Positions 4,228 through 58,082 of a stretch of DNA of 58,082 nucleotides are shown piece after piece. A model generated the notes under the pieces. That model ran no database searches. It saw only the letters and a list, made by a program, of their open reading frames with translations, and was not told the DNA's origin. Every line of letters begins with the position of its first letter. Position 1 is the stretch's first letter. Where the stretch lies: positions 62,001 through 120,082 of the IMG/VR virus record IMGVR_UViG_3300032829_000002; one strand, 5' to 3'. Source of the stretch: an uncultured virus (IMG/VR IMGVR_UViG_3300032829_000002). Its lineage: Duplodnaviria > Heunggongvirae > Uroviricota > Caudoviricetes. The position numbers and the translations under genes are program-made.

Positions 4228-4269
4228 GCGGGACGCCAGAGCGGCAACAAGAAGGAGAAGGAGAAGACC

Positions 4270-5391
4270 ATGAGTGTCCCCGCACGAGTCCTCAACGACC
4301 TGTTCACCCAGAAGCTGGGCACGCAGGAAGGCAAGGAGAAGATCGCAGAGTACGGCGGTTCGTACGTCCGTGATCGTCTCCGCGAAGTGTCCTACGCGAG
4401 GAAAGTTCTTCCTCCCGAGCAGGTCACCCGCGCCGACTGCCAGCGCAGCGTCAACCACGACACCCTCGTCAAGATCGTGGACGTCGAGCCGCAGAGCCGC
4501 GCGCTCTCGATCTCGTTCCGCGGTCAGCCCACCGCCCGCTTCATCCGCGGTGCGAAGGCCGAGGTCGCCTTCTTCACCATCTCCTCGGAGATGTTCCAGA
4601 AGACGGAGCAGGAGCTTCTCGCCTACGAGATGCCCATCACCAAGATCATCGAGGACAACTCGGTGAAGGACATCCAGGAGATCGAGGACCGCGAGTTCAC
4701 GATCAACATCGAGGCGGCCGTCCAAGCGCTCCAGCAGGAAGCGAACGGCGGCACGATCACCTCGCTGAACTGGTCGAACATCAACGCGGGCGCCGTCGTC
4801 GAGTTCTCCGTCCGCAAGGGCGAGCTCGCGCGCAACGCCGGCAAGAACGACGCGACCGTGCGCCCGATCCAGCGCCCGGACCTCGTCAACCTCTTCAAGT
4901 TGCTCGACGGCAACCGCCTCCGCTCGGAGCGCGTCCTGATGACGGAAGTCGACTGGGACGACCTCCTTCAGTGGACGGTCGAGGACTTCGGCGATCGCCT
5001 CCAGTCGGAGACGGCGGTCGACGGGTACAAGTACAACACGCTGCTCGGCCGCGCGTACATCCGCACGGTCAAGACGGACATCCTCCGCGCGGGCAACGTG
5101 TACTGCTTCACCCGCCCGGAGTTCTTCGGGAAGTTCTACGTCCTGAACAACTCGAAGTTCTACATCGACAAGATCGCCAACATGATCACCTTCCAGGCGT
5201 GGGAGGACATCGGTATGGGGATCATCAACATCGCGGCGGTGCGCAAACTCGAGCTCTACTCGGCCGACGCGACGTCGAACAACGCGGATGGGCTGCTCTC
5301 GAGCTTCATCCCGGTCGCCGAGGACGCGCTCGGTGCGGTCAACAACCGCGTCGACACGGGCCTCCAGTTCCCGCAGGTCAACCAGTACTGA
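4270..5391 (+). CDS. Major capsid protein (HK97 fold)
   Basis: 373 aa; strong RBS; very biased codons; KDIQEIEDREF helix; LLG..Y A-domain motif; followed by terminator. Confidence 0.8.
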   Translation: MSVPARVLNDLFTQKLGTQEGKEKIAEYGGSYVRDRLREVSYARKVLPPEQVTRADCQRSVNHDTLVKIVDVEPQSRALSISFRGQPTARFIRGAKAEVAFFTISSEMFQKTEQELLAYEMPITKIIEDNSVKDIQEIEDREFTINIEAAVQALQQEANGGTITSLNWSNINAGAVVEFSVRKGELARNAGKNDATVRPIQRPDLVNLFKLLDGNRLRSERVLMTEVDWDDLLQWTVEDFGDRLQSETAVDGYKYNTLLGRAYIRTVKTDILRAGNVYCFTRPEFFGKFYVLNNSKFYIDKIANMITFQAWEDIGMGIINIAAVRKLELYSADATSNNADGLLSSFIPVAEDALGAVNNRVDTGLQFPQVNQY

Positions 5392-19552: not shown

Positions 19553-20254
19553 ATGAGCCTCGGTTCGGGACTGTTCACGAAGCCCACGGCGGGAAAGCCG
19601 CATATCGTCAAGAATCGTCTGGACGGAGTCGGCGGCGAAGTCGGCAAGCTCCGTGCAGATCTCGCCAAGGAGCTCGCTCCGTTGGCTGCGATTGCAGTCG
19701 AGGAGTGGTCTGCACCGCCGGCGGCAGCGACCAACCTCATCAAGACGAGCATCGCGACCGTCGCATCCGCGGTGACCTACAAGGGCACCGACCTCAACGG
19801 AAGCGTCGGCGCGGCGAAGTTCGCACCGCGTCCGATCTCCTGCGCACTCGGTGCGGGCGCGCACTACGCGGGCTCGGCCACGATCCAGGGCTACGATGCC
19901 CAGGGCGTCTACATCACCGACACGATCGCGCTCGCGGGCAATGGCGGCACGACGCAGCACACGGCGAAGTACTTCGCGCAGGTGCTCGCGATCGTTCTGC
20001 CGGCGCAGCTCGACACGAGCGGCACGCTCGCGTTCGGTCTCTACGGAAACAACATCGGCCTCTCGCGGACGCCGAAGGCGCGCACGACCGCCCTTTTCCT
20101 GCTCCACGAGTTCGAAGACGGAGCGGTGGCAGGCACCGCAGGAGCTCTCATTGCTGCGGGGTCGGCGGCTCCGTACGGCGCGTACACGCCGCACGACGCA
20201 CCGAACGGCACGCACAACTACGCGATCTACTACGAGTTCGACGCGACGGTCTAG
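19553..20254 (+). CDS. Hypothetical virion structural protein
   Basis: AAGGAG RBS; Ala/Gly/Thr-rich beta protein. Confidence 0.6.
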   Translation: MSLGSGLFTKPTAGKPHIVKNRLDGVGGEVGKLRADLAKELAPLAAIAVEEWSAPPAAATNLIKTSIATVASAVTYKGTDLNGSVGAAKFAPRPISCALGAGAHYAGSATIQGYDAQGVYITDTIALAGNGGTTQHTAKYFAQVLAIVLPAQLDTSGTLAFGLYGNNIGLSRTPKARTTALFLLHEFEDGAVAGTAGALIAAGSAAPYGAYTPHDAPNGTHNYAIYYEFDATV

Positions 20255-20733
20255 CGCGTCTTCTCGGGCGGGTGCTGCATCGCCGCATACGTGGTGAGCA
20301 GAAGCCGCTTGAAGTGAGGGTTGCTCATCGCGAGCGGCCCTCGAGCAGCCCGGATCAGGTGAACAGCTTGGTCCGGGCTCATCTTTTTGAGCAGCATCAG
20401 CGCGAGCGCAGTGATGACGCCTGACCGATTGCGCCCCTGCCAGCAGGTGACGAGGACGGTCTTGCCGCGACGCACTTGTCGCGCAGTCCACATCGCGGCA
20501 TTGATCGCGCGTTCTTTGTCTCCCGGCGGCATGCCCTTGAAGTCGTCGTCCATCGGCGCGTGCAGCACGGCGATGTCTGGGAAGCTCTGCGCTCCCGGTT
20601 GGAACTCTTTGGCGGCGAGCACAAGAGAGTCGATCCCGTGCTTGTAGAGTCCGGGGCCGATCGGCGGGTGCCCTCCCATCCAGATCGCTTCGGTGATGGG
20701 GCTTGCGTGTTCTTTGAGGTGCATCACGTCCAC
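20251..20733 (-). CDS. Dual-specificity/tyrosine phosphatase family protein
   Basis: VLVTCWQGRNRSG CX5R P-loop; PMDD acid loop; SNPHF..LL C-terminus. Confidence 0.85.
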   Translation of the reverse strand: MDVMHLKEHASPITEAIWMGGHPPIGPGLYKHGIDSLVLAAKEFQPGAQSFPDIAVLHAPMDDDFKGMPPGDKERAINAAMWTARQVRRGKTVLVTCWQGRNRSGVITALALMLLKKMSPDQAVHLIRAARGPLAMSNPHFKRLLLTTYAAMQHPPEKTR

Positions 20734-36297: not shown

Positions 36298-36685
36298 GCG
36301 GTCGAAGCATCAGGAGTCCATCCGTCTGCGGCAGCATACCGATCACTCGGAACCCGAGCTTGTCGTACAGACCGCGAGCTCGGGTGTTATCCCTTCGGAC
36401 CGTGAGCATGACGGGTATGTACGCGTGCTTCAGCACCTCTTCCAGCATGCTCTGTCCGACGCCTCGTCCTTGAAAGTCCGGGTGCACCCCCACGCGAAGT
36501 AGATCGATGATCTCCGGACCGAATCGTACGAGGCAGTACCCGATGGCAGGTCTTCTCCAGATGAACGCCCTGCTGGTGCCGAGCTCCTCGTAGAGTGAGT
36601 GCTCGTTGAGGCAGTTGTCTGGGAACAACAACGTCTCGAGCTCGGCGAGCCGCTCGATGTCTTTCTTGTTGGCGTAGTGGAGCAT
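36278..36685 (-). CDS. GNAT (RimI-like) acetyltransferase
   Basis: RVGVHPDFQGRGVG motif A; LTVRRDNTRARGLYDKLGF motif B. Confidence 0.85.
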   Translation of the reverse strand: MLHYANKKDIERLAELETLLFPDNCLNEHSLYEELGTSRAFIWRRPAIGYCLVRFGPEIIDLLRVGVHPDFQGRGVGQSMLEEVLKHAYIPVMLTVRRDNTRARGLYDKLGFRVIGMLPQTDGLLMLRPLTSEST

Positions 36686-36694
36686 GGAGGCGTG

Positions 36695-36910
36695 ATGATT
36701 TCCGTTCAAGCAGACAACCTGCACGATGGCAAGGCACTCGAGAAAGAAGTCGATGCAGATCTCGATGCCTTCAACGCATGGTTTCAGGAGCACCTGAAGG
36801 ATGGCCCTCTCGACAACCTCGAGCGAGCGGCGATCAAGACCTACCTTTGGTGGAAGACCCATGACGGGGCTAAAAAAGAGGCACCCGAAGGTGCCTCTTC
36901 TCCCGCCTAG
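36695..36910 (+). CDS. Hypothetical protein
   Basis: GGAGG upstream; ERAAIKTYLWWK. Confidence 0.55.
   Translation: MISVQADNLHDGKALEKEVDADLDAFNAWFQEHLKDGPLDNLERAAIKTYLWWKTHDGAKKEAPEGASSPA
36869..36899 (-). terminator. Intrinsic terminator ending TTTTTTAGC
   Basis: GAGGCACC-UUCG-GGUGCCUC (cUUCGg tetraloop) plus U tract. Confidence 0.85.
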
Positions 36911-37227
36911 TTGACGGGCTGGTCCGCGCCGCCGGCGGCGTGCATCGCGACCGAGATGAACGTCATCGTCGTCTCGATCGAGTTGCGCAGGGCCATCAGC
37001 AACTTGAGGTGATCTGCGTACTTCTCCTTGTCGACGCCGTTAGTCAGTCCTGCCTTGCAGATGTCGACGCCGTTATCGATGACGTCCAGCGTCCAAGAGA
37101 AGTGCAGCATCGCCTGCTCGTAGCGCTGCTGGTGCAAGAAGGAAGACGCTGCGTGGTTGTACTTCGCGACCTTGAGCAGGTTCCTTGTGAGCTTCTCTTT
37201 GCAGACCTTGTCGATTTGAGTGTCCAT
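36907..37227 (-). CDS. Helical hypothetical protein (cassette gene)
   Basis: AAGGAGGCACTACC-ATG with own motif and terminator. Confidence 0.7.
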   Translation of the reverse strand: MDTQIDKVCKEKLTRNLLKVAKYNHAASSFLHQQRYEQAMLHFSWTLDVIDNGVDICKAGLTNGVDKEKYADHLKLLMALRNSIETTMTFISVAMHAAGGADQPVN

Positions 37228-37246
37228 GGTAGTGCCTCCTTGTTCT

Positions 37247-37255
37247 TCTTATTCC
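37247..37255 (-). promoter_or_regulatory. GGNATAAGA motif
   Basis: GGAATAAGA. Confidence 0.65.
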
Positions 37256-37310
37256 TCTTTTCAGGGTCCGATTGAAGGGGTACAAGAAGGAAAGCTACCG
37301 GGAGAAGAAG

Positions 37311-37604
37311 ATGGCACGAAAGTCCGTTGTTGCAATCGAGTGTGGCCGCTGCAATCGCACGGAGTACGTCGAGGAGGCTCCTGAGAGCGACTACCCCGCG
37401 CTCACGATCACTGTACGGGGGCACTCCGTCGCGTCCTACGACGACCTCTGCGCGAACTGCGAGGAGATCGTAACGACCGCGGTGACCAACTTGACGAAGC
37501 CGATGGAGAAGCGCTCCCCCATTCGCAAGAAGAAGGAGGCGGCTTCTGCACCCGCACAGGAGACACCGAACGGCGTTCAGCATATGCGCGTGCCACGGGG
37601 CTAA
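37311..37604 (+). CDS. Zn-binding small protein (Lsr2 N-terminus-like layout)
   Basis: MARKSVVAIECGRC...YDDLCANC; basic tail. Confidence 0.65.
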   Translation: MARKSVVAIECGRCNRTEYVEEAPESDYPALTITVRGHSVASYDDLCANCEEIVTTAVTNLTKPMEKRSPIRKKKEAASAPAQETPNGVQHMRVPRG

Positions 37605-37648
37605 AAAACGAGAGACAGCCGAGTGGGGGGAAGCCCGGCTGTCTCTCG
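37600..37648 (-). terminator. Intrinsic terminator ending TTTTTTAGC
   Basis: CGAGAGACAGCCG/CGGCTGTCTCTCG 13-bp stem plus U6. Confidence 0.85.
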
Positions 37649-37674
37649 CCGTCACCCGTCAAAGACGGGCAACG

Positions 37675-37866
37675 CTACACGACGGAAGGAGGGGCCGTCG
37701 CGGTGATCTTCTTGAGTTGGCGCTTGTACGCCTCCACGGCTTGCTTCAACCCGCGGTTTTCCTCTTCGAGTTTGTCGATGCGATCGTACAAGTGCGTGAA
37801 GCACTCGCTCAGCACGTGGAGTTGGTCGTCAGCTAGGTCCCCGCCGCAGTGTTCGCATTGTCCCAT
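37675..37866 (-). CDS. Small Zn-finger/coiled-coil protein (cassette gene)
   Basis: CEHC...H...C then coiled coil; AAGGAGG RBS. Confidence 0.7.
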   Translation of the reverse strand: MGQCEHCGGDLADDQLHVLSECFTHLYDRIDKLEEENRGLKQAVEAYKRQLKKITATAPPSVV

Positions 37867-37887
37867 GGTTTGATGCCTCCTTACTGT

Positions 37888-37896
37888 TCTTATCCC
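37888..37896 (-). promoter_or_regulatory. GGNATAAGA motif
   Basis: GGGATAAGA. Confidence 0.65.
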
Positions 37897-37930
37897 CTAC
37901 TACGTAGCGTTCTTGCGTAGCAGGGGTAGA

Positions 37931-37971
37931 GAAAAGAACCCCGGCTTGGACTTCCGGCCAGGGTTCTTTTC
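37931..37971. terminator. Bidirectional intrinsic terminator
   Basis: GAAAAGAACCC...GGGTTCTTTTC inverted repeat. Confidence 0.75.
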
Positions 37972-38070
37972 AGAGGCGTCCCTACTCCTACGTGGTAAGG
38001 AGGCAGTCCATGCAGAGGGCAAGCCCTCGGTTGGTCCACCACACGTAAGAGCAGTCTCTTCCTCCACGAT
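37931..38070 (-). ncRNA. Putative structured small RNA (~140 nt)
   Basis: Between an ATAAGA motif and a terminator; long stem 38039-38054/37982-37995; gCUUGc tetraloop hairpin; no convincing ORF. Confidence 0.5.
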
Positions 38071-38079
38071 TCTTATCTC
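38071..38079 (-). promoter_or_regulatory. GGNATAAGA motif variant
   Basis: GAGATAAGA. Confidence 0.55.
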
Positions 38080-38104
38080 GGAGAATACCTGTATTTTGCA
38101 CGGA

Positions 38105-38138
38105 GCTAAAAAGAAGGAACCCCGTGGGGTTCCTTCTT
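38105..38138 (-). terminator. Intrinsic terminator ending TTTTTAGC
   Basis: AAGAAGGAACCCC/GGGGTTCCTTCTT stem plus U tract. Confidence 0.8.
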
Positions 38139-38147
38139 CCGGTACTG

Positions 38148-38402
38148 CTACTCCGTGTCGATCGGGTCGGCCGCGCCACCGAAGGCGGCGTTGACACCCT
38201 TCTGCACGAGCGTCGCGATGCCGACGATCACGAGACCACCGGCGACGGCGCCTGCTGCGTACGAGAACGCGGTGGAGAACTCGCCGACGTGGGTGCTGAG
38301 CGATTCGCTGAATGTCGACGGCTCGAATGCCTTCGCCTGCTCCGACTTGTTCGTGTCGATGGTCTTGTTCGTGTCGATGGTCTTGTTCGTGTCGATGCTC
38401 AT
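38148..38402 (-). CDS. Small single-TM protein with IDTNKT repeats (cassette gene)
   Basis: AAGGAGGCAACC-ATG; hydrophobic AAGAVAGGLVIVGIATLV. Confidence 0.7.
   Translation of the reverse strand: MSIDTNKTIDTNKTIDTNKSEQAKAFEPSTFSESLSTHVGEFSTAFSYAAGAVAGGLVIVGIATLVQKGVNAAFGGAADPIDTE
38346..38397. repeat. 18-bp tandem repeat, about 3 copies
   Basis: CTTGTTCGTGTCGATGGT x2 plus a 16-bp partial copy. Confidence 0.9.
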
Positions 38403-38443
38403 GGTTGCCTCCTTGGTTGAATGGGTAGGTCTCCCATCAATCT

Positions 38444-38452
38444 TCTTATACC
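38444..38452 (-). promoter_or_regulatory. GGNATAAGA motif
   Basis: GGTATAAGA then leader hairpin and RBS. Confidence 0.65.
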
Positions 38453-38539
38453 GTTTCTTGTTGTTGTTTTTCCGGGGGCTGGGCTCTTTGACCTTCGCGA
38501 CCTCCCCGAACGGGACGCGTAGGACATCCTTCTCGAGGG

Positions 38540-38881
38540 TCATGCGACCCTCTCGAAGTACTTCTTCGGGTTCATGACGGGCTCGCCGCAGTGGCTGCAA
38601 CGAGGCCAGTCCTTGGCGACGCTTGCAAAGCGTGCCTCTGCGCGGAGTCGAGCCTGCGCTCGTTCGTGCTCCGGGAAGGAGCCTTCGTCTTCGCCGCACA
38701 TACCCTCCTCCACAGTGGAGTAGAGCCGGACCGGCGGTCTGTACGGAATCACGGGACCGAGGGCTTTGAGATTGCCCCCGGTCTTACTGGCGCGCCGAGC
38801 GTCAGCGGACGTGTGAACAAGATCGAGGGCTGTGCACGCCAGCTTCACGCCAGCGGCGACCCCCAGGAACATGAAGATCAT
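38540..38881 (-). CDS. Hypothetical protein (hydrophobic N-terminus, C-terminal CxxC)
   Basis: AAGGAGGCACT-ATG. Confidence 0.65.
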   Translation of the reverse strand: MIFMFLGVAAGVKLACTALDLVHTSADARRASKTGGNLKALGPVIPYRPPVRLYSTVEEGMCGEDEGSFPEHERAQARLRAEARFASVAKDWPRCSHCGEPVMNPKKYFERVA

Positions 38882-38897
38882 AGTGCCTCCTTGTTGT

Positions 38898-38906
38898 TCT
38901 TATTCC
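38898..38906 (-). promoter_or_regulatory. GGNATAAGA motif
   Basis: GGAATAAGA. Confidence 0.65.
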
Positions 38907-38929
38907 CTCCTTTCCTCTGGAATCGTCAG

Positions 38930-39940
38930 CTACTGGATGATCGAGAGCACCGTTGGGATGTCGAGCCCATGCTGGGCAGCGACCTCCAGTAGCTTCTTGT
39001 ATCCGCGAGCGTCTCCACTCTGAACCATCTTGATGGCGCGGCTCCAGTCGAGAAGCAGCTCCTTGGCCAGAGCGATCTGCGTATTGCTGCGACTGGCAGT
39101 TCGAAGTTGCTCTTCGAGTCGATCGGCTCGAATCTTTGCATCCTGCATTTCCGAAACTGCCGTGTTGAGTTGCTGCTCGAGAGCGGACACACGGCCCTTC
39201 AGGCGTGTGTTCACTGCCCTCATTGCCGGTGAGGAGTCATTGGGGGAGTCGTTGCTCACCCTTTTGGCGGCCTCGAGCTGCCTCTCGAGGCCATCGGTGT
39301 GCTTGCGAAGGTTGGTGAACCCGACTTCAAGCTCCCCGCGGATGCGCGTCTGCTCCGCGAGGCGCTCTTCGAGCGTCTGGTTCTCTTTCCTCAGCTTCTC
39401 GACGTTCGCTGCGTGATTGAGCAGCGCCGTCTCCCGCTCTTTCAGCGTAGCCTCGAGAGTCGTCTTGGCCTCTTGAAGCTTCTCGGTCTCCATCTCGTAG
39501 AGTTCGAGGGTCTCCTTCAGGTCTTGCAGTGACGGCTCCGGAGGCTCTGGGGCTTCTGGAAGGGGTCGAGGAGTGCTCGGCGGCGCTTGCTGCTTGTTTG
39601 GAACAGGTGTCAGGCGCGGCGGGCGTGGGAAGTGAGAGAGGTACTTTCCCCAGTCCCCCTTGTTTGGAAGGCCGACGAAGTACTTCCCGGTGTGCTTGGC
39701 CAGGTCTTTCGCTGCGTTTCGTTGCCCGGCGCTCATGAGCTCGATCATCGCGACGATGATGTCGGCCCCTTCGACGCTGGTCGACTTCGACTTGTCGAGG
39801 TTGGCGACCTTGACGATGTCGATGCCGTACCTCTCGAACCTCGGCCGGAGACTCTTTTCGAAGAGCTGTCCGGGGAAGTTCGAGAAGACGACAGCACGCA
39901 GGTTGCGTGTGGCACTTGACGGCGGTGTGGTTGTTACCAT
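38930..39940 (-). CDS. DUF2325-like alpha/beta domain plus long coiled coil
   Basis: ADIIVAMIELMSAG....AKDLAK..GKYFV; GGAGG RBS. Confidence 0.6.
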   Translation of the reverse strand: MVTTTPPSSATRNLRAVVFSNFPGQLFEKSLRPRFERYGIDIVKVANLDKSKSTSVEGADIIVAMIELMSAGQRNAAKDLAKHTGKYFVGLPNKGDWGKYLSHFPRPPRLTPVPNKQQAPPSTPRPLPEAPEPPEPSLQDLKETLELYEMETEKLQEAKTTLEATLKERETALLNHAANVEKLRKENQTLEERLAEQTRIRGELEVGFTNLRKHTDGLERQLEAAKRVSNDSPNDSSPAMRAVNTRLKGRVSALEQQLNTAVSEMQDAKIRADRLEEQLRTASRSNTQIALAKELLLDWSRAIKMVQSGDARGYKKLLEVAAQHGLDIPTVLSIIQ

Positions 39941-39951
39941 GTCTTCCTCCC

Positions 39952-40581
39952 TCATGGTGTCGAGCAGAGCGCCCACATGTGCCAAACGAGGTACGGAGAC
40001 GTGTTGGAGCGCACCTGGCACTCCATGCCTGCCTGCTTGGTCGTATCCGTCGGGTTGATCGGGATGCAGACGACCTCGCCGAGGTTGGGTGTGCTCATGT
40101 TGTAGTAGACGCCGCCAGAGATGAGGACGTCCGAGTTGTTGTTGCAGTAGATGTCACCCTTATCGACTTGCTGGTAGTTCGTGTTGGCGTTGTTCTGCCA
40201 GTTCACGACGTAGAGCTTCGACTTGGAGATCGACGTGCCGGCGGGGCCTTGGGGACCCGCAGGGCCTTGAACGCCTTGGACACCTTGAGCTCCCTGGGGA
40301 CCCGCGGGTCCCGCAGGACCTTGCAATCCAGGATCTCCTTGAGGGCCTTGGGGACCGGTGGCGCCGATGGTGCCAGGATCGCCCTTTGGTCCTTGCGGGC
40401 CGGCAGGACCCGCAGGGCCTTGAGGACCCGTGGGTCCTTGCGGGCCAGGATCGCCGGTGCAGAGCGGCGCGCTCGAAGAGCAGGCGGGATCGCCGCTGCC
40501 CTGCTTGTTGTTCGTCGTGGTGTCCGTACCGCACGCGACCAGGAACAGGCTCGCGATGAGAATCGAAATGTAGATGCGCAT
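39952..40581 (-). CDS. Collagen-repeat lipoprotein
   Basis: Signal peptide with LVAC lipobox; 25 uninterrupted Gly-X-Y triplets; Cys-containing C-terminal domain. Confidence 0.8.
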
Positions 40582-40601
40582 GGAAAGACCTCCTTCGTTC
40601 T

Positions 40602-40610
40602 TCTTATGCC
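40602..40610 (-). promoter_or_regulatory. GGNATAAGA motif
   Basis: GGCATAAGA. Confidence 0.65.
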
Positions 40611-40663
40611 GCCAACGGCTCCGGAATGTGCGCGCGGGCTAAAGAGAGCTGAACTCTCAGAGT

Positions 40664-40672
40664 TCTTATGCC
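40664..40672 (-). promoter_or_regulatory. GGNATAAGA motif heading an ORF-less unit
   Basis: GGCATAAGA. Confidence 0.6.
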
Positions 40673-40701
40673 CGATTCACCCTGGAAATTGCGCCCTCTG
40701 G

Positions 40702-40729
40702 GCTAAGAAGAAGGGGGTGCCCTTCTTCT
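40702..40729 (-). terminator. Terminator-like hairpin ending TTCTTAGC
   Basis: AGAAGAAGGG/CCCTTCTTCT stem. Confidence 0.6.
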
Positions 40730-40735
40730 ACTCGA

Positions 40736-40921
40736 TCAGCGCAGGAACCCCCGTCCGTCGCCCACCATTGCGAGCAGCCGCGTCTGGGTCTCCCTGCGGC
40801 GCTTCGCTTCTTCTTGTTCCTGTACCAGCAGGCAGAACAAGCGCCAGTCTTCGAAGCCGCTGAGCGGGCCGGCGTTGGTGTCCTCGGGATACAGGTATTT
40901 CTTGATGCAGTTCTTGTCCAT
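40736..40921 (-). CDS. Small hypothetical protein (cassette gene)
   Basis: AAGGAGGCACTACC-ATG. Confidence 0.6.
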   Translation of the reverse strand: MDKNCIKKYLYPEDTNAGPLSGFEDWRLFCLLVQEQEEAKRRRETQTRLLAMVGDGRGFLR

Positions 40922-40940
40922 GGTAGTGCCTCCTTGTTCT

Positions 40941-40949
40941 TCTTATGCC
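40941..40949 (-). promoter_or_regulatory. GGNATAAGA motif
   Basis: GGCATAAGA. Confidence 0.65.
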
Positions 40950-40990
40950 GCCTTCGCGCCCTTTTTTGTGGTTCGTGGTAGCCTTCGGAC

Positions 40991-43900
40991 ATGCCGCTGA
41001 ACTCCGCTGAGATTGCTGCCGCTTCTGGGCAGTTTCAGTCGATGTACGCCTCGAACATGCAGTTCTCGGGCATGGTCGGTGGGATGGGTGGGCCGCCCGT
41101 TCAGGCAGAGCGCGTTACGGGCGGGCTGATGAACGCAGCCGCGAGCGTCGGAGCTCCTTTGGCGAGCCTCGGCATCGGAATGCTCGGGCTCGATCCGATG
41201 AGCCTCGGCCTCAAGGCGGGGATGGGTGCCTACATGGGGGGCGCAGGGCTGATGGGAGCCGGCGTTGCGGGTCTTGGTGTTGCCGCAGGGGTGGCGGTTC
41301 CGATGGCAGTCGCCAGCTACGCGGCGAACCAGATGTGGACGGGCGCGCAGCAGCAGCAGGCGTTCAACCAGCAGATGCGCGGCGCCTTCAACTTCATGAC
41401 GCCGTACGGGCAGGGCTTCTCGACGGGGCAGCTTGGGGGGATCAACCAGCAGCTCTTCAACATGGCGGGGCAGCAGGGGCCTGGTGGGGAGATGCTCGGG
41501 ATTCGAGAGCTCCAAGGGCTCGCGTCGAACATGGGGCGGATGGGAATGGGCGGCGGCGTACGCGACGTCAGCCAGTTCACTCAGCGCTTCCGCGAGATGG
41601 TCGATACACTGAAGGTCGTAGCGAAGGAGATGGGAACCAGCATGCAGGCGGCGCAGGAGTTCGTCGTCGCGATGCGGGGATCGGGCATCTTCAACTCTGG
41701 AGACCAGCGTCGATTGGCCACCGAGATCCGCCAGTTCTCTCAGGCCGGCAACATGGCCACGAGCGAGCTCACCGCGGCGGCGAACATCGGAGCTCAGGTC
41801 TCCCGTGCGATCGGCGGCCGTGGAGCGCAGGGCGCGTTCGCAGGAATCCGCACAGCCGGGATGATCGGAACCGCCATGCAGGCGGGAGTGCTGTCGGAAG
41901 AAGACATCTACAACGCCACGGGGCTCACCGGCGCAGAGGGCCGACAGGCACTCGCGACACGGCAGCTCGAGCAGGCTGGTGGTTTTCTGCGTTCGGGACG
42001 CGGACGGATGTTCTTGGCGTCCGTCGCGGGACAGAATGGGCAGCTCGATCAAGCATCCGTCGAACAGTGGATGTCCGGTGACATGAACATCGGGGCCACG
42101 CGCGGCCGCGCTCGTGGGAACTTGTCCTCCATCGGAAAGGCCGGGTTCCTCCGCAACGAAGGCCGCCTTCGCGGTGCAGCTCTTCAGCAGTTCGGGGGAA
42201 TGCTCCCGACGATGGCGCTGATGCAGTGGGCTTCGAGCAAGGGCATCGACATCGATCAAATGGACGATCGCTCGATGATGTTCGCCTCCCGGCAGCTCGG
42301 AATGGGGATGGACGAGCTCGAGGACGCCGTGAAGATGGCGAAGGATATGCCCCGGCTGCGGGAGCAGCAGCGGTCATCGGCGCGCGCAGACGAGTTCCAG
42401 CGCAGGCAGGCCACCCTCAGCCGAACGCAGGGCATCGAAGGCGTCAAACGACGATTCGAAGAAGCCAGAGACAAGGTGCAGAACAGTCTGCAACGCGCCG
42501 GAGCTCAGTTCTACACCGACCTCTCCTCGATGGTGGAGACGTACATCAACAAGCTGACGGGCGTCGCGGTCGAAGAGTACGACCAGCAGATCATGGACGC
42601 CTACTCGGATGCGATTCGTGGCGCCGGGAGCTCTGGTCTTCAGAAGCAGCTCGGTGGCGGCGCGCGCGCCGGAGTGGGGATCGCAAGCAAGTACGGAACG
42701 GGTACTTCTCCTCTCGCTGGACGGACGTCTGCGCAAGCCGGCGTCAACAACTTCTTCGGACGCAGGGAGGGCGTAGGCCGTGCAGCCGAAATCGGTCTCA
42801 CTGGGTTGTTTAGCTCAGGAGCGTCGAAGCTCGCGTTCGGCGACTCGGACATGGATCGAATGCAGGCTGCTGGATACGGCGGGTTGTTCCGTGGTGTCGG
42901 CGGAGCGGACGATCTCCAAAGACGTACGAACATGGCGCAGGGGGCGTACTACGCAACGCAAGCTGCTCTTCGAGATCCTTCTCTCAAGGACGTGCACGGC
43001 AACGCGAAGCTCGATCAATTGACCCAGGTGCTCGCGCAGCGCGCGAACGCTGGTGACAAGGACGCCGCGGCCGCACTGATGAACATTCGGTCGGCCAATA
43101 CGCCGGAGGAGCGGCAGAAGATCGCTCGACAGATGATGGGAGAGAAGGGTCCGCCGAGTACCCTCTCTTCTTTGAGCGGTGGTTTTGCCACGATGGACGA
43201 GAAGAACTTGGCCTATGGGCAGGCGATGGCGATGCCCGCGGCCAAGAGGGGACGTCCCGAATTTGCAGAGGGACTTCTCGGTATGCTCGGAGCTCGCAAG
43301 ATCGACAAGCAGACCGAAGGGATGTCGGTTGTCGACAAGGTTCTCACGGGACTCACCGGGGGCTACTGGAAGACCGTCACCGATCGACGTGCGGCAGCAG
43401 CCAAGGGCGAGTACTTGAACTCGCAAGAAGGCAAGTCGCTGATCTCCGGCATCTACTCAGGCGACCAGGCGTCTCGAGACAAGATCGAAGACATGTTGCT
43501 GAAAGAAGATCTCCCGCCCGAGCAGCGAGAGGCTTTGAAGCAGATGGCAGCGGCTGCCGACTCCTTCGACCTGTACGAGAAGGCTCAGAAGGAGAAGCGA
43601 GAGCCGACAGAAGAAGAGTGGGCAGCGATCGCCCGCCGACGCGGTATGTCCGTGGACGCCGTGAAGAGCTCTCCGTCGCAGCTCTCAGCCGTCGCCAAGG
43701 GCCAGCAAGAAGAGAAGACGCGTATTCTCGCTCGCGAGATGAGTCGCGGAGCGCAGCAGCAAGCGCGTTCGCTCACGCTCAGCGGGTACGCGACCACGGA
43801 CAAGTCTGGAAAATTGGTCTTGTCGGCGGGCACCGAGGCAGCGATCACTTCGGCACTCGGCAAGGACGCTGGGGGCATCATCAAGGCGATGCAGGGCAAG

Positions 43901-57938: not shown

Positions 57939-57972
57939 GCCTCGGGAGCGCTTGCTCCTAAAGGAGGCATCC

Positions 57973-58082
57973 ATGGGTTCGCACTACTACGCGTCCGACC
58001 TGAAGTTCTTTCTTCCGGTCGACAAGCACGCCGAGGCGCTGGAGCGCTTTCAGAAATGGCGCAAAGAGAAAGACGATGACCG
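57973..58082 (+). CDS. Hypothetical protein, 3'-truncated
   Basis: AAGGAGG RBS; MGSHYYASDLKFFLP... Confidence 0.65.
   Translation, partial: MGSHYYASDLKFFLPVDKHAEALERFQKWRKEKDDD

Follow-up and report, generated by a model that had tools for sequence, protein, structure and literature searches.

A myophage known only from uncultured virus records very probably encodes a genuine small non-coding RNA on the minus strand of a short stretch between two small genes, and a tract within this RNA is the reverse complement of the phage's own early-type ribosome-binding sites (RBSs). We propose, with a probability of about 0.5, that it acts in trans on multiple targets, as an anti-RBS sRNA that damps early mRNAs of the phage itself. 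That the RNA acts by pairing to RBSs is probable from the sequence, and the odds are even that the phage's own early mRNAs are its main targets. Damping of early protein synthesis is made probable by the many related viruses that carry similar RNAs.

The DNA analyzed here (the window) is a stretch of 58,082 nt, bases 62001-120082 of the 120-kb virus record IMGVR_UViG_3300032829_000002. A 185-kb record, G001, carries identical DNA (0 differences over L001); for genome-wide tests, the missing part was taken from G001 and joined to the stretch. The source is a myophage of about 185 kb, as judged from PHROG matches to capsid and tail sheath, and it encodes a 2128-aa fused beta-beta' RNA polymerase and a sigma-70-family protein. 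Capsid relatives are common (259 matches, 80 kept), and the bins that hold relatives of the phage bear six or more different labels. Cultured relatives are distant: Salmonella phage Arash and Vibrio phages D69, D148, and D181 share capsid identity of 25-29% and polymerase identity of 31-32% with the phage. They resemble it in genome size (180-188 kb), in a related capsid protein, and in a multi-subunit RNA polymerase; the mReC clade, as described in the accessible part of its report (PMC7481178), likewise combines a related capsid with a multi-subunit RNA polymerase. The terms "early" and "late" are labels given from gene content. Other minus-strand coding in the window includes a dual-specificity phosphatase (20251-20733), and the early cassette at 39952-40581 encodes a collagen-repeat protein with a signal peptide.

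At the sequence level, the unit stands alone, running from promoter to terminator with no translated ORF. Its parts, its neighbors, and its best-matching gene start are as follows:

38148..38402, minus strand: upstream cassette gene for an 84-aa protein, with its own terminator at about 38140-38103
38094..38099, minus strand: -35-like box GCAAAA of an early-type phage promoter (profile score)
38071..38077, minus strand: -10-like box GATAAGA (sequence, two-box pattern)
37923..38065, minus strand: predicted small non-coding RNA of about 135-143 nt, both ends inferred
38061..38065, minus strand: 5' GGAGG, paired with CCUCU at 37976-37972 (minimum-energy and centroid structures)
38042..38054, minus strand: 5' arm of the outer stem, CUGCUCUUACGU(G), 13 bp (sequence, fold)
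38015..38028, minus strand: inner hairpin GAGGG-CUUG-CCCUC (sequence, fold)
37996..38012, minus strand: anti-RBS tract CAUGGACUGCCUCCUUA (pair probabilities, duplexes with gene starts)
37982..37994, minus strand: 3' arm of the outer stem, (C)ACGUAGGAGUAG (sequence, fold)
37923..37971, minus strand: intrinsic terminator hairpin with U-rich runs on both strands (sequence, fold)
37997..38048, plus strand: AAGGAGG and a 12-codon ORF (ATG at 38010), judged not to be the product
37675..37866, minus strand: downstream cassette gene for a 63-aa protein with CxxC and a coiled coil, with its own promoter (ATAAGA at 37893)
57961..57975, plus strand: best-matching gene start AAGGAGGCATCCATG, a candidate target (15 bp, one bulge)

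Early-type promoters occur across the lineage: GCAAAA, a gap of about 17 nt, and then GGGATAAGA. In the phage, such ATAAGA promoters lie upstream of accessory cassettes, the sigma gene, and the DnaB-primase-polymerase block; because they precede these genes, we take promoters of the form GCAAAA...GATAAGA to be early-type. Strict matches to the two-box pattern number 15 in the genome and 0-4 in the 20 shuffles. We built a profile from 53 Shine-Dalgarno (SD)-led promoters of 12 genomes (consensus CGCAAAA...GGGGATAAGA), with the sRNA-unit site outside the training set. The sRNA-unit promoter scores 24.6 bits and ranks 10th among 18 sites in the phage (training 5th percentile 20.8, 25th percentile 25.4). 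A sequence-only reading of this DNA had described a minus-strand GATAAGA, an ORF-less body, and a terminator, and these are present in that order, with the motif at 38077-38071 and the terminator at 37971-37931. Because GATAAGA forms the -10-like box of a promoter whose other half is GCAAAA, the RNA probably begins at G38065 and not at 38079; a G occupies the +1 offset in 21/21 ORF-less units compared.

At the other end of the unit, the terminator hairpin is followed by CTACCCC, a variant of the family's TTAGCCC terminator tail. Early terminators carry a conserved (T)TTAGCCC after the hairpin, at 36867, 37598, 38103, 40636, and 40700 and in relatives; perhaps this tail is a signal for the phage polymerase. 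An empty cassette at 40636-40669 consists of a 31.6-bit promoter, a 15-nt hairpin, and a terminator tail only, after which a second promoter follows.

The predicted fold is significant on the minus strand only. For the 149-nt stretch, the folding energy is -68.4 kcal/mol (z -4.87), which 0/200 shuffles match. For the 98-nt body without the terminator, z is -3.6 on the minus strand (1/500 shuffles) and -0.92 on the plus strand (90/500 shuffles), and the two imperfect positions of the outer stem read as G-U on the minus strand and as A-C on the plus strand. The overall shape is a rod: a GGAGG/CCUCU closure, the 13-bp outer stem, the inner hairpin, and a bulge before the 3' arm. The structured RNA of the sequence-only reading is borne out by these values and in its details: the long stem, put at 12 bp with G-U pairs, is present at 38054-38042 with 37994-37982 and spans 13 bp, and the GAGGG-CUUG-CCCUC hairpin was found at 38028-38015 (gCUUGc is a stable tetraloop). 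The anti-SD segment is predicted to be exposed only in part. By pair probabilities, UCCUUAC (38001-37995) alone within the tract is unpaired, as a bulge that is likely a toehold, whereas CAUGGACUGCC is kept in short G-U-rich helices. We rejected a reading of the opposite strand as a GGA-loop RNA (a CsrA sponge) or a super-SD, because the promoter and the fold are on the CU strand.

The description of the cassette as ORF-less also stands, in that promoter and terminator enclose no SD-led ORF with proper placement on the RNA strand. That strand has an 18-codon GTG frame, whose GGAGG is 16 nt off and paired. The plus strand at the tract looks like a typical start (GTAAGGAGGCAGTCCATG) and is similar to the downstream cassette leader. 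This likeness, the lack of a sequence homologue of the RNA, and the existence of an empty cassette at 40669 would all suit an RNA with no trans function: an inverted or duplicated gene start in an empty cassette, either a relic or the site of the plus-strand 12-codon ORF. We consider this improbable. The significant fold lies on the minus strand only; two terminators precede the plus-strand ORF; the late-type motif near it (37991-38001) is defective, without the final T found in 25/25 picked late motifs; and CU-rich units without an ORF are found repeatedly in this slot. The opposite strand has no matching ORF in relatives: it reads ATG-TGA in L187, has a different frame in L188, or has no ATG. 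An anti-start-codon CAU ahead of the CU tract, part of the original claim, is present in the phage's RNA but is not a family trait (3/24 units). On the sequence, then, the plus-strand 12-codon ORF is disfavored as the product.

The tract complements gene starts over 9-15 bp. Of the 218 gene starts called, those of the form AAGGAGGCA-N-CCAUG give the best duplexes: 57961, the downstream neighbor, and a gene outside the window. The start at 57961 gives both the top duplex (-25.8 kcal/mol) and the top net energy (-8.5). Three starts had been named earlier as the context of the cassette genes; of these coordinates, 37227 and 40921 mark the ATG, and no ATAAGA motif belongs to the gene at 57961 itself. 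No perfect target was found in the full record, where a 16-mer of the RNA matches only itself and the next best match has three mismatches. The core motifs separate gene classes: AAGGAGGCA occurs at 8/18 early, 2/200 other, and 0/58 late-block starts, and GGAGG at 18/18, 47/200, and 7/58, respectively. Phages differ as well: AAGGAGGCA occurs at 6/15 of the phage's own early starts versus 3/102 early starts of nine relatives.

The fit between RNA and RBS follows the phage. We compared ten RNAs with ten early-start sets (3-19 starts each) in a matrix from which G002 and G017 were left out because the set contained no unit of theirs. The own-phage excess is 0.40 nt (p 3e-5) over 9 phages, with G026 (3 starts) dropped and with a permutation that ignores kinship; with the strand paired to the 5' end of the RNA itself masked, it is 0.34 (p 9e-5). 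Antisense RNAs give 0.02 (p 0.39), shuffled RNAs a maximum of 0.21 among 200, and random genome windows 0.02 +/- 0.10, with the best of 200 sets at 0.41. An energy-based fit shows a weaker own-phage effect (p 0.013-0.016, 7 phages, kinship ignored), and the trend recurs in 9 same-slot loci, a partly separate set (p 0.002 and 0.024, kinship ignored). The own-phage fit could come from a shared host, from sequence habits of the lineage, or from descent from an inverted gene start, and for a single RNA such descent would produce this pattern too.

Because the RNAs fit their own phage's early RBSs best, the "cassette regulon" is favored over host genes as the target, two options that the sequence-only reading had left side by side. 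A host-directed anti-SD sRNA, which would target SD-led host mRNAs for shut-off or anti-defense and match phage RBSs as a side effect, is unlikely. It would be at home behind an early-type promoter, as we infer for host-takeover functions; no fixed phage partner goes with the CU tracts that recur across relatives; and many late-type starts look leaderless (8/25) and would escape it. What speaks against it is that the fit reaches past the SD core to phage-specific bases of the spacer (GCA) and tracks the individual phage.

Predicted binding is weak after deduction of the energy needed to open the RNA. With a generic SD probe, the RNA yields -3.7 kcal/mol net versus -5.0 for shuffles (37/50 as good or better), and only 4/21 units beat their own shuffle mean. 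Median net binding is -1.45 for early starts versus -1.09 for late starts (p 0.088), and coding early transcripts with predicted 5' ends reach -7.8 at best, at the upstream 84-aa gene. Of the original proposal of a trans-acting silencing sRNA, the structured non-coding RNA with an anti-RBS tract is well supported by its promoter class, its strand-specific fold, and the ORF-less CU-rich units of relatives; the weakness of net binding counts against silencing; pairing despite weak net energy is assumed to need a chaperone or kinetic seeding.

Homologues of the phage's own RNA were not found. An exact 18-mer of the RNA matched its own record only or gave chance matches, as did two degenerate patterns, for which L305, the sole other match inspected, is unlike the unit. 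A DNA search of 23 related records gave no homologue (best E 0.004, terminator-sized pieces), the cultured phage collection held no DNA match to the RNA, and the examined part of G002, the closest relative, yielded no such unit. The Rfam check suggested earlier was negative: Rfam 15 gave no match at the gathering score or below E 0.01, with 7 sub-threshold matches across 36500-41500, mostly on terminators, and 0 matches in 9 further loci.

Comparable units were sought by position. We scanned 51 loci upstream of the 40991-type gene and obtained 41 promoter rows without an SD-led ORF. By eye, 21 compact units were kept and 20 dropped (likely missed ORFs, duplicates, and units whose ends were cut off or unclear). 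With 3 more from a covariance model, the set comprises 24 hand-delimited units from 22 loci, the phage's own included. CUCCU/CCUCC occurs 80 times in these units versus 28.5 +/- 6.0 expected (0/500 dinucleotide shuffles), a count that is inflated because 11 of the 24 units are one homologous family; the density is 23.6 per kb in the units versus 1.6-4.4 per kb in 7 genomes. The motif is present in 21/24 units and absent from 3, and in the phage's RNA alone the count (2 versus 0.77 expected, 106/500 shuffles) is within chance. The sense strand folds better than the antisense strand in 15/24 units only, and seven same-slot or similar units, when aligned, have no shared sequence (39% column identity).

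The same set bears on a decoy role, in which CU-rich single strands would titrate a protein, such as a nuclease that acts on the anti-SD tail or a pyrimidine-binding regulator, or in which the RNA would mimic the 16S tail. The relatives' RNAs have several exposed CU tracts each, some in terminator loops; unpaired positions of the units are 67% C+U; and predicted mRNA binding is weak, all as a decoy would have it. We nevertheless regard a decoy as rather unlikely, since the tract has no fixed motif (ACCUCCU in 5/24 units, CACCUCCU in 2/24) and changes with each phage's RBSs. The 16S-tail mimic of the sequence-only reading is disfavored on further grounds. The 16S rRNA tail consensus is ACCUCCU, though this may not be the tail of the phage's host; the phage's RNA has GCCUCCU, with G in place of A at the first base, and 9/15 of the phage's own early RBSs face this position with C.

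Covariation supports the sisters of the phage's RNA and not the RNA itself. The homologous family, R1, comprises 11 distinct RNAs (L177, L178, L183, L186, L187, L188, L210, L212, L214, L225, and L228) with a three-domain structure, marked by a CCUUYGGCAAG hairpin, a CCCCAC...GUGGGG stem, and CU-rich loops. Double changes occur in 25/38 pairs in a plain alignment of 8 members, and in 28/38 pairs in a model-fitted alignment that takes in partial matches and is biased toward the model. Four R1 members were scanned against Rfam without a match. The R1 model recovered 3 new members but nothing in the phage window up to E 1, and because it misses the phage's RNA, the covariation analysis suggested by the sequence-only reading lends support to the sister family but not to the RNA in question. 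R1 and the phage's RNA have a layout in common: a closing stem, an inner hairpin, an unpaired CU tract, and a 3' arm.

Other short units accompany these. A second ORF-less early unit of the same phage (L090:4019-4110, about 92 nt, 29.8-bit promoter) bears the family terminator tail and folds into two hairpins; the 15 nt at its start complement the tract (13 bp, one bulge) but are paired in its own hairpin. We considered this unit as a sponge and provisionally rejected it: in the best dimer, it is the RNA's purine-rich 5' end and not its seed that pairs with the L090 tail, at a net -11.8 kcal/mol (6/150 shuffles and 1/250 random windows are as strong), and no ORF-less unit ranks first in 8/9 relatives. 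Further short, apparently non-coding early units at G005:154199(-), G006:165710(-), G007:182468(+), G005:41174(-), and G006:48632(-), from three close relatives, have a common GGCGCACAGCA-hairpin motif. The early units at L117:11436(-) and G026:86897(+) contain tRNA T-arm-like sequences, as judged by eye.

The flanking genes invite a more local reading. The upstream 84-aa protein has a polar start and a hydrophobic C-terminal segment, and matches no Pfam, PHROG, NCBIfam, or atlas family. The small protein of this slot, at 38148-38402 and in 21 related loci, evolves fast; its N-terminus is polar and often repetitive, its C-terminal segment hydrophobic, and its gene is preceded by a long leader with a hairpin at the start. 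In relatives, a loosely similar gene (weak BLAST links) precedes CU-rich ORF-less units; the two occur together in 9/22 loci, and the gene occurs without such a unit in 13/22. The downstream 63-aa protein has no family match either, and the RBS of its gene (AAGGAGGCA) is complementary to the RNA. The promoter of this gene lies inside an inverted repeat at 37894-37926, with arms (37926-37916 and 37904-37894) similar to those of the RNA's outer stem; the repeat may be an operator or may have been left by a local duplication.

Could the RNA be a type I antitoxin-like regulator of one neighbor, the small upstream membrane protein or the 63-aa protein? The hydrophobic segment is suggestive, and the upstream gene is the best coding early target both here (-7.8) and in G011 (-15.3, with a 12-nt match). 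Type I systems are built on long, near-perfect pairing with one neighboring toxin mRNA. Here, perfect matches span 6-12 nt, the upstream gene ranks first within its locus in 3/9 only, and in most loci with this gene the unit is missing; we judge this reading very improbable.

The late genes supply the counterpart of the early RBSs. A TGnTAnnnT motif lies at 40974-40990, upstream of a 1206-aa gene at 40991 that is labelled tape-measure-like and has no family match. The motif is present in 25/25 loci picked from 37, mostly 6-14 nt before the start, and is probably a late promoter. Because the gap between motif and start codon is 6 nt in 8/25 loci, the sequences suggest that late mRNAs are partly leaderless. 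At the capsid gene (4250-4270, with 17 related loci), the SD of most relatives reads GGAG and lacks the G that would follow, versus GGAGG at the early genes of the phage.

Anti-SD pairing by small RNAs has cellular precedents. RsaE, LhrC, and the pneumococcal csRNAs are C-rich-loop sRNAs of Gram-positive bacteria, and csRNAs also carry an anti-start-codon, as does the phage's RNA. These sRNAs repress multiple targets via a pyrimidine seed on the SD, the mode proposed here; they differ in being chromosomal regulators of cellular genes, whereas the phage seed follows the virus's early RBSs. According to the accessible part of PMC4615179, RNAIII carries UCCC loops, and the cuckoo/RSs0680 sRNAs of Alphaproteobacteria keep an exposed anti-SD-like C/U motif constant on variable stems and are proposed to occlude RBSs. 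As described there, cuckoo RNAs have 2-4 adjacent hairpins of similar size with CCUCCUCCC in each loop, in contrast to the phage-encoded single rod with a terminator and a bulged tract. Exact CCUCCUCCC occurs in 0/24 units, and CCUCCUCC in 4 relatives but not in the phage's RNA; the RNA does not belong to the cuckoo group. For lytic phages, the accessible part of PMC8244752 describes sRNAs as less obvious in function and predicted for few such phages, and does not mention an anti-SD class; the sRNAs it covers are short non-coding transcripts of virulent phages, as is, by prediction, the RNA described here. A literature search, with most subscription papers outside it, found no paper on such a phage RNA. 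The main text of PMC10690425 is without the terms "Shine-Dalgarno" and "sRNA", and four motifs are absent from the 7 supplementary files searched. Relative to known anti-SD sRNAs, the tuning of the seed to the RBSs of its own phage would be the new element.

On the preferred reading of a multi-target anti-RBS sRNA, the RNA would be made early, from its early-type promoter, and its paired 5' end and terminator would render it stable and allow it to accumulate. The bulge would seed on the AAGGA that early mRNAs carry at their 5' ends, with pairing then extended through GGCA and often CCAUG. Loading of the 30S subunit would be blocked, and the early class would be damped as a group. Late-block mRNAs, which have no AAGGAGG and carry a GGAG-only, weak, or no SD or are partly leaderless, would be largely spared, and the RNA would therefore feed back negatively, with a delay, on early expression; strong-SD host mRNAs would be hit as by-catch.

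The usual explanation of phage timing lies in polymerases and sigma factors. A wider reading, which we offer tentatively and hold to be doubtful as yet, is that of a class-wide translational timer: a post-transcriptional early-to-late switch in which early mRNAs, whose strong SD stands right at the 5' end, would be turned off through their type of RBS, as would SD-led host mRNAs, and late mRNAs, with a weak SD or none, would not. Such a timer might serve a widespread lineage of large lytic phages through several unrelated folds, with the seed re-tuned in each phage. If this is true, an RNA that mutes a gene class by RBS type would add a translational layer to the early-to-late switch, and would represent a compact, tunable repressor of strong-SD mRNAs.
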